Virus record (IMG/VR): IMGVR_UViG_3300021255_000062
Location: 1 to 64,000 of that record
Source of the DNA: a virus
Taxonomy: Duplodnaviria; Caudoviricetes
Length of the DNA: 64,000 nt
Strand: one strand, 5' to 3'
Each line of letters opens with the position of its first letter. Position 1 is the stretch's first letter. Positions 53,491 to 58,205 of this stretch are shown one piece after another. The notes under the pieces were generated by a model. It was not told the DNA's origin and ran no database searches. It was given only the letters and a program-made list of their open reading frames with translations. A program made the position numbers and the translations under genes.

Positions 53491-53519
53491 TTGTTTTTTT
53501 AATAAAATTTTGATATAAT
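53491..53519 (+). promoter_or_regulatory. sigmaA-type promoter for HNH-dnaE unit
   Basis: TTGTTT-17-TATAAT with TG. Confidence 0.65.
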
Positions 53520-53555
53520 ATATATAGAATAAATAGAGGAGGCGTGTGAAAACTT

Positions 53556-54188
53556 ATGCAAGGAATTGATATAACTGGACAACGCTTTGGTCATTTAGTT
53601 GCTTTAAAGTTAATACCCAAAGAAGAACGTACTTGGAGTAATAAAGAAAGGGCTTGGTTATGTAAGTGTGATTGTGGTAATGAAGTCATAGTGCGACAAA
53701 GAAATTTATTAAGCAGTAGACCAACCCGTTCTTGTGGATGTTTGCGTAAAAAAGAAGCGTTCAAGTCAACTAATATGATAAAAGGGTTAGAAGATGAATT
53801 TTTAGATAGTTTTAATGATTTTGATAAATTTCTTTTTATTCATAGAACTATTCGCACTGCAATAGGAAATTTTAGTAGTTTAGAAAAGGATAAATATAAA
53901 GAACTAATAAACCACTTTTATAATCAAAAACAATTTAATGATATATATAATTTTTGGTTATCTCAAGAAAAAACTGATACTTTTTATGATTGGGCAAAAC
54001 CTTCTATTGACCATATTATTCCCAAAGCAAAGGGAGGCACTAATGATTTAAACAACTTACAATATCTTACAGTTTTTGAGAATTTAAACAAACGAGATAT
54101 GACAATGAATGAGTGGAATAATTTTAAAAAACTAACTCACACAAGTAGTGATTATTTTTATGAGTCAATTAAGGAGGTGATGCAATGA
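53556..54188 (+). CDS. free-standing HNH homing endonuclease
   Basis: N-terminal DITGQRFG.L...WLCKCDCGN...SCGC domain; C-terminal PSIDHIIP..KGG.N...NLQ.L...EN..K. Confidence 0.85.
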   Translation: MQGIDITGQRFGHLVALKLIPKEERTWSNKERAWLCKCDCGNEVIVRQRNLLSSRPTRSCGCLRKKEAFKSTNMIKGLEDEFLDSFNDFDKFLFIHRTIRTAIGNFSSLEKDKYKELINHFYNQKQFNDIYNFWLSQEKTDTFYDWAKPSIDHIIPKAKGGTNDLNNLQYLTVFENLNKRDMTMNEWNNFKKLTHTSSDYFYESIKEVMQ

Positions 54189-57100
54189 AAAATCAGTTAA
54201 GATACCCAGGATCGCTCCATAATCATACTGATTTTTCTTAGGTGATCCAATTTTCGTTTGCGTGACAGTATTAACACTGTCGAGTCATTAATAGATTATG
54301 CAATAGAACTTGGTCATGAAGTAGTAGCGATTACTGAACATGATACAATAGCTAGTGCTATCAGAGCGGAAAAATATTATAGCAAAATTAAAAAGAATAA
54401 TCCGGACTTTAAACTTATTAGAGGTAATGAGATTTATCTTGTAAGAAATGGATTAAATAATGATAACTTTAAAAAAGAAACAGATAGATATTTTCATTTT
54501 ATTCTGTTAGCAAAGGATCTCGAAGGTCATAGACAGATTCGCGAGATTTCTTCGCGTGCTTGGATGAGAAGTTACATGGCGCGCCGTATGAGAAGGGTCC
54601 CAACTTATTATCAAGATTTAATTGATGTAATTGGAAAGAATCCTGGCCATGTGGTTGGGTGTACGGCATGTTTAGGTGGGTGTCTTCCAACTCAACTTAT
54701 CCGTAATAGAGATACTGGCGCACCGAGTATGGACTTGATTAAACGATGGATTGTTCAGATGCAAGGTATTTTTGGAATAGATGACTTTTATTTCGAAATG
54801 CAACCATCATTTAATAAAGACCAGATTTATGTAAACAAAAAATTAGTTGAACTTAGTGAAGAAATGGGTATCAAATATATTATAACTAACGATGCTCATT
54901 ATTTAAAAAAAGAAGATAGACCAATTCATAAGGCTTTTCTTAATGCTCAGCAAGGAGATAGAGAAGTTGACGATTTCTATGCAACGACCTATTTAATGAG
55001 TGATGAAGAAATTTATCACTATATGGAAGAATCATTAGGAGAAACAGTTTTACAAAAAGCATATCAAACAATAGAAGAAATTAAAGATAAGTGTGAAGAC
55101 TATTCATTAATGAAACCGCTAAAGATTCCAAGATTGAATTGGAAGACTTTTGATGTCAAATCAGATGCGGTAAAATTTTTAAGTGATAAAATCCCTTATT
55201 TAAAAAGATTTCTCGAATCAGAATATGCAGAGGACAGACATTTAGCATATGCAATTATTGATAGATTAACCAATAGTAAAGCAGAAGATGAATTATGGAA
55301 CAAAGAAACTTATGAAGAAATTAATGCATGTCTTAAAGATACGTGGGTATCATCAGAAGTAAACGGAAGTAGATGGAGTGCTTATTTCTTAAATCTTCAA
55401 AATATAATTGATGCTTGTTGGGACGCAGGAACTCTTGTTGGCTGCGGCCGAGGCTCTGGAGTTGGTTTTATTTTGTTATATCTATTAGGTATAACTCAGA
55501 TAAATCCACTAAGAGAAAAAAGTCAAACCAAAAGATGGAGATTTCTTAATCCAGAGCGTGTGTCAGTCCTTGATGTAGATATTGATATCGAGGGCGGACG
55601 GCGTGCAGACGTATTAAAAAAGTTTCGTAAAATTTATGGAGAAGATAGGGTCGCTAATGTATTAACATTAAAAACAGAAAAATCTAAGTCTGCAATTCAA
55701 ACAGCTTGTCGTGGATTGGGAGTAGACAGTGATATATCTGCATATCTTTCTTCATTCATTCAAGCTGATAGAGGACAGCTTCGAACTCTTAAACAAACTT
55801 TTTACGGAGATCCCGATAATGGGATTAGTGCCTCCCATCAGTTCAAATTAGAAATGGAAGAGAACTATCCAGAAGTCTGGGAAGTGGCGCAAAGAATTGA
55901 AGGATTAATCAATGGCTGTGGGGTTCACGCGGGTGGAGTTATCTTTGTAGATGAGCCTTTCACAAAGTCAACCGCATTAATGCGAGCGCCAAAAGGAGAA
56001 ATTATAACTCAATTTGATCTCCATGATGCGGAAGATACAGGACTTATTAAATATGATATCCTATCCGTTGAAGCATTGGATAAAATTCACAATTGTATTG
56101 ATTTGATTTGTAAATATGGCTATGAAAAAAGAGAAGAAACATTAAAAGATACCTATGAAAAAATTATTGGTATATATAATCTTGAACGTGAAGCGCCAGA
56201 GATGTGGCAGATGTGTTGGAATCATGAGGTAATGAGTTTGTTCCAAATGGAAAAACAATCTGGAGTAAACGGAATTGCAGCAATGAAACCAACTTCTGTA
56301 GATGACTTGGCAATTCTCAATTCAGCAATTCGTCTTATGGCGACAGAAAAAGGTGGAGAAATGCCAGTTAATAAATTAGCTAGATTTAAAGCGCATCCAT
56401 CTGATTGGGATTATGAATTACAAAAATATGGACTTGGCGCTGAAGCAAAAGAAATTCTTGAACCAGTTCTTAATGTATCTTACGGTTTATGTATTGCTCA
56501 GGAACAATTTATGCAACTTGTACAGCTACCTGAATTAGGTGGATTCAACCTAACCTGGGCAGACAAGTTAAGAAAGTCAATTGCAAAAAAGAATCCGGCA
56601 CAGTATGAAGAGTTAACCAAAGAATATTTCAAGGTTATAAAAGAAAAAGGTTTAGATGAGCGACTTTGTACTTATGTATGGAATGTACTTATTGCAATGA
56701 GTAAAGGTTATGGATTTAACTTATCTCATACGTTGGCTTATTCATTAATCGGATTGCAAGAGTTAAATCTTGCATATCGTTATCCAACAATTTTATGGGA
56801 TTGCGCTTGTCTTATCTCTGATAGCGGCGGTGTCGATAAAGAAGAAGAGGAAGAAGATGGAAATAACGAAGAAACAACTAGAGGAAATGTTTGGGATTCG
56901 TTTGATGACATATCAATGGGTGTTTTTACAGATGATGAAGATGGAGAAGTGGGAGACATTGATTTATCTCCCACCAAGAAGAAATCGTCAAACAGAACTG
57001 CTAACTATGGCAAAATTGCTACAGCAATTGGAAAAATAAGTCAAGAAGGTGTAGAAATTATAGCCACAAATATAAATAAGTCTGAATACACCTTTGCACC

Positions 57101-58205
57101 AGATGTAGATAATAATAGAATTATTTATGGTTTAAGTGGTATAACTAGAGTTGGTGATGATTTAATTCGTTTAATTATGAATAATAGACCGTATGAGTCA
57201 ATAGAAGATTTTATTGGTAAAGTTAAAGTTAATAAACCACAAATGATTAATTTGATTAAGTCAGGCGCATTTGATGAGTTATATGGCGGCGATCGTGTAG
57301 TTGCAATGAATAAGTATATTGATTTAATTGCCGACAAAAAGAAAAGAATGACATTACAAAATATGCAAATGTTAATTAATTTTGGTTTCATTCCAGAGGA
57401 ATATGATTTTCAATGTAGGGTTTACAACTTTAACAAATATTTGAAAAAACATAAAATTGATAATTCATATGGTATTGATAATGTTGCTCTAACTTTTTAT
57501 TCAAACAATTTTGATATGGATTTATTAACTCCTTCTGATGAATATGTATTTACTATAAAGCAAACTGATTGGGATAAAATTTACAAAAAGCAAATGGATA
57601 TTATTCGTCCATTTATTAAAGAGAACAATCAAGAGTTGTTAGATAAAGTAAATAATAAACTTAGACAAGATTTATGGGATAAATATTGCTCTGGAACTTT
57701 AAGTCAATGGGAAATGGATTCTATTTCTTGCTATATTCATGACCATGAATTAAAGAATCTTAAAAATGGATTTTATGGATTTGCAGAATATAGTAAACTA
57801 CCAGAGAATCCGATAGTAAGTTATGAATTTCGTTCTAAAGAAACTGGTCAAAAGATTCCATTATTTAAAATTTGTCGTATTGCTGGAACAGTATTAGACA
57901 AAGATAAAAATAAGAAAATGATTACTTTGTTAACCAATGATAGTGTTGTAACTGTAAAAATATTTGGTGATGCTTTTACTCATTATGATAGACAAATATC
58001 AGAAAAGCAACCAAATGGAACTAAAAAGGTAGTAGAAAAGTCTTGGTTATCAAGAGGAAATAAAATTATAGTAACGGGGATTAGAAGAGAAAATAATTTT
58101 ATAGCGAAAAAATATAAAAATACTCCATATCATTTAGTTGAATTAATAACTTCAATTAGTGATGATGGTTATATTACAACTCAAAAGGAGCGAGTTGAAG
58201 TATGA
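54185..58205 (+). CDS. dnaE: DNA polymerase III alpha (DnaE-type), reading frame interrupted by a 10-nt insert at 54239-54248
   Basis: AAGGAGGTGA RBS and ATG 54185 give MKNQLRYPGSLHNHTDFS*, continuing in +1 frame as SNFRLRDS; AITEH, TNDAHY, GRGS, LDVDID, HAGG, KYDILS motifs. Confidence 0.9.

Follow-up and report, generated by a model that had tools for sequence, protein, structure and literature searches.

Known bypass cassettes and the dnaE locus

Translational bypass tied to a nuclease had rested on one cassette, mobA/gene 60 of phage T4, which the latest survey still calls unique (bioRxiv 10.1101/2022.08.31.505936). The 5′ end of a phage polymerase gene, dnaE, is a candidate for a second one. 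It lies in a stretch of 64,000 nucleotides (nt) of IMG/VR record IMGVR_UViG_3300021255_000062, hereafter the window. It makes up the first 64 kb of an uncultured gut phage genome, which is complete at 125.9 kb and has terminal repeats, a guanine–cytosine content of 35% and replication genes of the SPbeta/YorL type. A first-pass annotation had read an HNH endonuclease gene and a 10-nt insert in dnaE as a mobile cassette like mobA/gene 60, and this reading is supported. Positions 53520–54248 probably form a homing-endonuclease cassette between the dnaE promoter and codon Ser18, in which a short gap would confer immunity and the ribosome would hop over the gap. Literature searches found no description of a dnaE nuclease/gap system.

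T4 and the dnaE locus share a free-standing HNH-type nuclease and a non-coding gap, which interrupts an essential replication gene where it encodes a conserved metal-binding part. All nuclease carriers have the gap, which outlasts the loss of the nuclease, and there are both filled and empty alleles. The codon for take-off matches that for landing and is followed by a stop, and the 3′ strand of an upstream helix lies within the ribosome at the moment of take-off. MobA is not homologous to the HNH protein of the window; only the 21-residue HNH core aligns. The T4 target is a topoisomerase whose gene is split in two, whereas dnaE is not split into two genes. The T4 gap measures 50 nt; in dnaE it is 3–8 nt plus a repeated codon, corresponding to a move of 6–11 nt, and varies in length between alleles. 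A long nascent peptide is impossible in dnaE, which has in addition a second cassette with a GIY-YIG nuclease at a neighbouring codon. Judged by sequence comparison, the dnaE cassette has the logic of mobA/gene 60, but is not a member of that family.

Hops over a stop codon have been engineered in E. coli, with matched codons flanking the stop (Weiss et al. 1987, reviewed in PMC5009743). Two of the loci compared here, L045 and L048 (TCT TAG TCA/TCT), have exactly this layout, 9 nt for one residue, and the window has a 10-nt version. Unlike the synthetic constructs, the dnaE sites occur in nature, are conserved and linked to a mobile element, and have a helix that covaries. No natural in-frame stop-hop was known according to a 2016 review, which states that shorter matched-codon counterparts of the gene 60 bypass have 'long been presumed' (PMC5009743). 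Streptomyces phage Hau3's gene for terminase is also an essential phage gene with 10-nt inserts read by bypass, and mass spectrometry detected the junction peptide in E. coli (PMC10732093). Its A-site codon is the rare UUA, a proposed sensor of the host state; no nuclease is linked and the trigger is not a stop, in contrast to the dnaE gap (PMC10732093). The 'byp' elements of Magnusiomyces mitochondria are likewise many short mobile inserts corrected in translation. They differ in their length of 27–55 nt, mitochondrial location, an unused codon in the A site, often unmatched codons and the lack of a linked nuclease (PMC5009743).

Structure of the HNH–dnaE junction

A free-standing HNH homing-endonuclease gene for 210 amino acids (53556–54188, + strand, as are the other features of the locus in the window) is located directly 5′ of dnaE, in agreement with the first-pass annotation. 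Its product has a Cys-rich N-terminal domain and a C-terminal HNH core. It matched Pfam HNH (PF01844) with 24.6 bits, above the curated cutoff of 21.4, and PHROG 374 'HNH endonuclease' with 4e-21. The catalytic DH...N...N..K core is kept to at least 98% across 97 homologues. The HNH stop TGA (54186–54188) and the dnaE start ATG (54185–54187) overlap as ATGA (54185–54188), and the dnaE Shine-Dalgarno (SD) sequence AAGGAGGTGAT (54171–54181) lies within the 3′ end of the HNH open reading frame (ORF), both as previously noted. Locus L025 has lost the HNH gene and still holds the SD stretch as an HNH remnant.

The dnaE gene starts with a mini-exon of 18 codons (MKNQLRYPGSLHNHTDFS, 54185–54238), which is part of the cassette and encodes the HxH of the PHP domain. 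Its last codon is the take-off codon TCT (Ser18, 54236–54238), which is TCT in all broken Ser-site alleles seen. The non-coding gap TAGGTGA (54239–54245) has TAG (54239–54241) in frame 0 and TGA (54243–54245) in the resume frame. It is followed by the landing codon TCC (Ser, 54246–54248); AAT at 54249 is the putative next decoded codon. The main body of 1319 codons (54246–58205) encodes the PHP domain, the Pol III alpha core, fingers and HhH (Pfam; PDB Pol III alpha matches). This long frame, which the TGA closes on its 5′ side, opens with the directly adjacent TCC 54246 and ends at 58205.

Deletion of 10 nt (54239–54248 or equivalently 54236–54245) restores HNHTDFSNFRLRDS, the motif of 54 distinct gapless relatives; the earlier claim of a 10-nt insert in a highly conserved dnaE motif is borne out. 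Joining both pieces moves the start of the Pfam PHP match from profile position 6 to position 2 and raises its score from 75.2 to 81.3 bits. Profile positions 2–5 are encoded in the mini-exon, and the HxH is found nowhere but upstream of the gap. The joined N-terminus aligns with the N-terminal HxH of the Taq Pol III alpha (3e0d). DnaE is of the Pol III alpha type, with PHP, Pol III alpha, finger and HhH domains and the N-terminal HxH (Pfam, PDB). By these matches, the break lies inside the metal-binding motif of the PHP domain. The H-N-H codons of the mini-exon show synonymous variation only among gap alleles.

Natural variation of the dnaE gap

About 100 related dnaE loci were collected from IMG/VR scans and one metagenome scan. 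The gapless set has 54 distinct alleles that continue through an HNHTDFSNFRL-type sequence; 64 loci were verified as unbroken reading frames. About 34 distinct natural alleles have a gap, 20 after the Ser codon and 14 after the Asn codon. The Ser-site rule is TCT, TAG or TGA, 0–4 nt and TCN, with moves of 6, 8, 9 and 10 nt. The shortest gaps are TCT TAG TCA in L045 and TCT TAG TCT in L048 (6 nt). Moves of 8 nt are found with TCT TGAGG TCT in L007 and L008, TCT TGAAG TCT in L025 and TCT TAGCG TCA in the L046 clade. L124 has TCT TGAATG TCT (9 nt), and moves of 10 nt are represented by TCT TAGTGGG TCT/TCC in the L049 clade and TCT TAGGTGA TCC in the window. The Asn-site gap follows the Asn of HNH, 12 nt 5′ of the Ser site, and its rule is AAY, TGA or TAG, 1–5 nt and AAY, with moves of 7–11 nt. 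Common to both sites is a codon, a stop, a few bases and a codon for the same tRNA, then the next consensus codon. The flanking codons match (TCT...TCN, AAY...AAY) in all variants but L204/L226, and the stop is always TAG or TGA.

Landing codons were TCN in 20/20 Ser-gap alleles; gapless alleles had TCN in 32 and AGY in 25 of 57 (Fisher p = 1.5e-4). TAA, the codon that ends 55% of long ORFs in this genome, stands at the start of none of the 14 distinct gap strings. The same gap alleles were found in different samples (L007/L008, L046/L047). An IMG/VR DNA pattern scan for more Asp-Phe-Ser-type gaps retrieved only already known loci.

Within the window gap, the 9-nt AGGTGATCC (54240–54248), which other gap variants do not have, is perfectly complementary to the 3′ end of 16S rRNA; it can also pair with GGAUCGC at 54209–54215. 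SD-like sequences are present in the gaps of the window, L007 and some Asn sites. They are absent from the TAG, TAGCG and TGAATG gaps and were rejected as a general gap feature.

Pairing of nucleases and gaps

The suspected co-occurrence of HNH gene and insert was found across the relatives. The HNH gene accompanies the Ser-gap in 10 distinct alleles (13 contigs) and none of the 54 gapless ones; a further 10 Ser-gap alleles have no nuclease. The full-length HNH homologues (50–84% identity) are all directly 5′ of a Ser-gap dnaE, even where DnaE is only 38–60% identical to that of the window; these context counts leave out 220 further HNH homologues. A GIY-YIG gene, unrelated to the HNH gene, occupies the same position 5′ of dnaE in L020 (2153–2872), L026 (2156–2881), L133, L134, L135, L139, L204, L208 and L212. 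It is identified by Pfam (5e-8) and by PHROG as 'homing endonuclease' (7e-24), and all nine distinct alleles pair it with an Asn-site gap. Five Asn-gap alleles are without nuclease, as are all gapless alleles.

Thus, a nuclease without its gap was never seen among distinct alleles, and a gap without nuclease is frequent. This asymmetry is what self-immunity predicts, and the same has been reported for mobA/gene 60 (bioRxiv 10.1101/2022.08.31.505936, section 12). GenBank phage isolates included no close relative of the HNH protein, the GIY-YIG protein or DnaE (best 42%, 36% and 43% identity), hence no cultured carrier is known. A scan of genome contigs found only dnaE fragments in rumen metagenome-assembled genomes and gave no host assignment.

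Evidence for mobility

On the DnaE tree, HNH gene and gap require at least five changes, forced by well-supported branches, and carriers are scattered among gapless sisters. The window is the sister of gapless L005 with 99% support and differs from it by a clean insertion of about 650 nt. The L049 clade, with DnaE proteins 97–100% identical, has three site states with sharp borders. HNH gene and gap are both present in L255 and L262. In L256 and L263, internal deletions, different in each, have spared the gap and the last 43–65 nt of the HNH gene. The sites of L257 and L261 are empty (TAT AGT AAT). On the left, the flanks agree from the promoter, and on the right from the first base 3′ of the gap. 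The shared flanks therefore define the cassette as HNH gene, replacement dnaE 5′ end and gap, and the gap itself is the right border.

The resident dnaE promoter is located upstream of the cassette. Read from the sequence, this promoter (53491–53519) has a −35 box TTGTTT (53491–53496), a 17-nt spacer and an extended −10 box TGATATAAT (53511–53519); it was not flagged by a consensus promoter scan. The first-pass annotation had given the HNH gene its own promoter. The promoter exists, but belongs to the resident dnaE, because the same promoter sits directly 5′ of dnaE in the empty-site relatives. By its position, it would now drive the HNH gene plus dnaE. The promoter region (TTGATATAAT...TATAGAA) is repeated at 108320–108344, 111529–111560 and 122649–122689 of the genome contig (G000 C1); the copies probably represent one common class of early or middle promoters.

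Helix between start and take-off codon

Fold and duplex predictions for the window place a helix between the start and the take-off codon. Its 5′ arm (GAAAAAUCAGU, 54187–54197) pairs with a 3′ arm (ACUGAUUUUUC, 54227–54237) that ends within the take-off codon, forming 11 bp with a predicted energy of −13.0 kcal/mol. In all Ser-gap alleles, the dnaE start region is predicted to pair with bases ending in the take-off codon. The Asn-gap alleles have a different helix, AUGAAGAC/GUCUUCAU, which ends at the Asn take-off codon. Ser-gap alleles have compensatory changes at four helix positions, on both strands; examples are CAGU/ACUG to CGGU/ACCG and GAAAAAUC/GAUUUUUC to GAAUAAUC/GAUUAUUC. Due to loop indels, RNAalifold recovered an 8-bp helix core only, and the pairs were therefore counted by script.

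The duplex of the start region with the 13 nt ending at the Ser codon had a median of −11.5 kcal/mol in Ser-gap alleles, −6.6 in Asn-gap alleles and −5.2 in gapless alleles (p = 2e-10, Ser-gap vs. gapless). With the 13 nt ending at the Asn codon, the medians were −11.6 kcal/mol for Asn-gap, −6.5 for Ser-gap and −4.9 for gapless alleles (p = 2e-8, Asn-gap vs. gapless). According to these predictions, two unrelated cassettes have the same start-to-take-off design. A second hairpin covers gap and landing codon in L007, L025, L045, L048 and L124, but not in the window.

Proposed translation through the gap

In the window, the TAG in frame 0 precedes the TGA in the resume frame and the frames do not overlap; a +1 or −1 frameshift cannot join them because a stop blocks each frame. 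The moves of all gap variants together span all three frames, and four variants carry an in-frame stop. Programmed +1/−1 frameshifting of the prfB/dnaX type was rejected as a general mechanism on account of the missing overlap in the window and the four in-frame variants. Stop-codon reassignment was also rejected: reading through the window TAG leads to a TGA eight codons later, and the 16 tRNA genes of the phage include no suppressor tRNA. Reinitiation was rejected as a general mechanism since many alleles have no start codon within 60 codons 3′ of the landing codon.

Matched codons around a stop, readable by one tRNA, are the layout of all variants but L204/L226 at the sequence level. The phage tRNA genes, clustered at 115468–119149 of G000 contig C1, include tRNA-Ser(UGA) and tRNA-Asn(GUU), which would perform the two kinds of hop. 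Only re-pairing of the peptidyl-tRNA, a stop-hop, would decode every variant and yield the exact consensus LHNHTDFSNFRL. The dnaE ORFs are intact over about 1300 codons in all carriers but one, and the ratio of non-synonymous to synonymous substitution rates (dN/dS) in the dnaE body is 0.04–0.22 between gap-bearing alleles. Selection for such a hop is supported by the TCN-only landing, the absence of TAA, the synonymous-only variation of H-N-H and the low dN/dS.

We infer cleavage, immunity, hop and a role of the helix from these patterns. The first-pass annotation had already proposed a nick close to the HTDFS codons, a protective gap and the hop; it did not include the helix at the 5′ end, the variable gap length or the second cassette with its GIY-YIG nuclease. 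In the proposed cassette, the replacement dnaE 5′ end would extend from the start codon to Ser18, and the short non-coding gap would split the HxH...S motif. The nuclease would cut or nick the unbroken dnaE of co-infecting relatives at the conserved motif, and repair after the cut would copy the cassette into the recipient dnaE. The gap would break the nuclease's own target and render the carrier immune. Such an immunity would explain that the nuclease is never without gap and that the gap outlives the nuclease. The sharply bordered filled and empty alleles agree with protection of carriers and conversion of gapless alleles.

In translation, the ribosome would arrive at UCU (Ser18) with UAG in the A site. 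The peptidyl-tRNA-Ser would release, the mRNA would slide by 10 nt, and the tRNA would re-pair with UCC, with reading restarting at AAU. The product would be a normal polymerase with no residue gained or lost, and the junction ...HTDFSNFR... would give the tryptic peptide YPGSLHNHTDFSNFR. By analogy with the 5′ stem-loop of gene 60 (bioRxiv 10.1101/2024.12.09.627546), the helix probably forms again once the ribosome has passed and favours forward movement of the mRNA. The modelled helix also hides the dnaE AUG, which would make initiation dependent on ribosomes coming from the HNH gene and fits a coupling to HNH translation. We lean slightly towards the view that these are the first natural stop-hop sites, with 6–11 nt skipped, and that they have arisen twice in one polymerase motif as immunity devices of HNH and GIY-YIG nucleases, each with a convergent helix driving the mRNA forward.

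Alternative explanations

The polymerase may be split or truncated, with translation ending at TAG 54239 and the body started separately, e.g., at TTG 54258 via the SD-like AGGTGATCC; the 18-residue HxH peptide would be dispensable or act in trans. The T4 topoisomerase functions as a split protein (bioRxiv 10.1101/2022.08.31.505936). The window gap is SD-like and has a TTG four codons 3′ of the landing codon, but the spacing from AGG to TTG is 15 nt. L124 has an ATG directly after the stop; most variants are without SD or start codon near the gap, and eight have no start within 60 codons. Matched codons, TCN-only landing and synonymous-only H-N-H stay unexplained, and we know of no precedent for an 18-residue peptide giving metal ligands in trans. 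A split polymerase is therefore considered unlikely. Conventional recoding allele by allele is also doubtful. It would combine a +1/−1 frameshift where frames overlap with readthrough where the gap is in frame, adding 1–3 residues to the motif. Many variants of 7, 8, 10 and 11 nt do have a resume frame that is open across the take-off codon, and some gaps contain the SD-like GAGG or AGGTGA, as at prfB/dnaX frameshift sites (PMC5009743). The stops in each frame make it impossible in the window, however, and in the 8-nt Asn variants a resume-frame TAA overlaps the take-off codon and re-pairing is non-cognate. The added residues would fall between or beside the metal-binding His residues. Three different mechanisms would be needed for one architecture, and readthrough finds no suppressor tRNA in the genome.

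That the cassette kills dnaE, the gap being a repair scar in carriers that are defective or use another polymerase, is very improbable. The extra nonsense codon of L205 and the mismatched landing codon of L204/L226 would fit. Against it stand the ORF integrity and low dN/dS of the carriers, the complete genome with terminal repeats around the window locus, and the recurrence of the same alleles across samples. The compensatory changes of the helix and the conservation of the matched codons imply that translation across the gap is under selection. Little credence is given to a link of nuclease and gap by shared ancestry alone, with the gap as a translational attenuator of dnaE unrelated to immunity. 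The alleles are related and come from few lineages, and a helix that hides the dnaE start looks regulatory. Yet two unrelated nuclease families each have their own gap site (10/10 and 9/9) and never an unbroken site, the right border of the cassette is the gap, and the carriers are scattered among gapless sisters on the DnaE tree.

Several points weigh against the proposed immunity cassette with a stop-hop. Synthetic stop-hops have been described as occurring at a low level (PMC10732093), a difficulty in the case of a replicative polymerase. At take-off, the nascent chain has no more than 13–18 residues; therefore, a nascent-peptide signal of the gene 60 type cannot operate in the same manner. 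The flanking codons could owe their match partly to a duplication during DNA repair and not to selection, and the helix may serve translational coupling only. The Asn-site gap of L204/L226, AAC TAGGGTG AGC, lands on AGC and not on AAC; its GIY-YIG gene is present and its ORF otherwise intact. L205, an Asn-gap allele that has lost the GIY-YIG gene, has an in-frame TAG in place of a conserved TGG (Trp) at codon 38 after landing, which may indicate a decaying dnaE or a sequencing error. The exact 10-nt gap string of the window was seen in this record only. Since the alleles share descent, their counts and the p-values make them look more independent than they are. The dN/dS between carriers partly reflects a gap-free history because the cassette moves.

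If the hop over the gap is true, dnaE has a second natural, much smaller version of the T4 gene 60 bypass cassette, and homing nucleases can invade the most conserved coding sequence without intron or intein, needing a few bases and the ribosome. About 34 alleles with graded gaps, two take-off codons and two nuclease families, together with filled, decayed and empty sites in near-identical genomes, are a ready mutational series. The series bears on the determinants of the ribosome hop, on mRNA pairing at the exit side as a driver and on nuclease protection by few bases. For annotation, such dnaE genes resemble frameshifted or N-terminally truncated polymerases.

Further insertions in and beside dnaE

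The dnaE bodies of relatives have further interruptions of several hundred to more than 1000 nt, some with GIY-YIG genes. They are located in L049/L255 (stop after 447 codons), L213/L244 (after 816 codons) and L240/L241 (after about 810 codons, GIY-YIG inside), and are also present in L248, L252, L258 and L264. They resemble introns or homing elements of another kind. In this group of phages, dnaE is a mobile-DNA hot spot. The dnaE of Staphylococcus phage S-CoN_Ph11 (L268, OR354834.1) is annotated as two coding sequences, 1162–1950 and 1984 onward. This split lies about 260 codons in, has a 33-nt spacer and leaves the N-terminal HxH intact.

The interval between recJ and dnaE of relatives encodes tandem Cys-rich domain proteins in 2–6 copies (L017: 1273–2643, L025: 562–1932, L006: 1516–2400, L026: 40–1233). 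The tandem domain corresponds to the N-terminus of the HNH protein (residues 1–65). The same Cys-rich domain is widespread as a short stand-alone phage ORF, with more than 560 IMG/VR matches.

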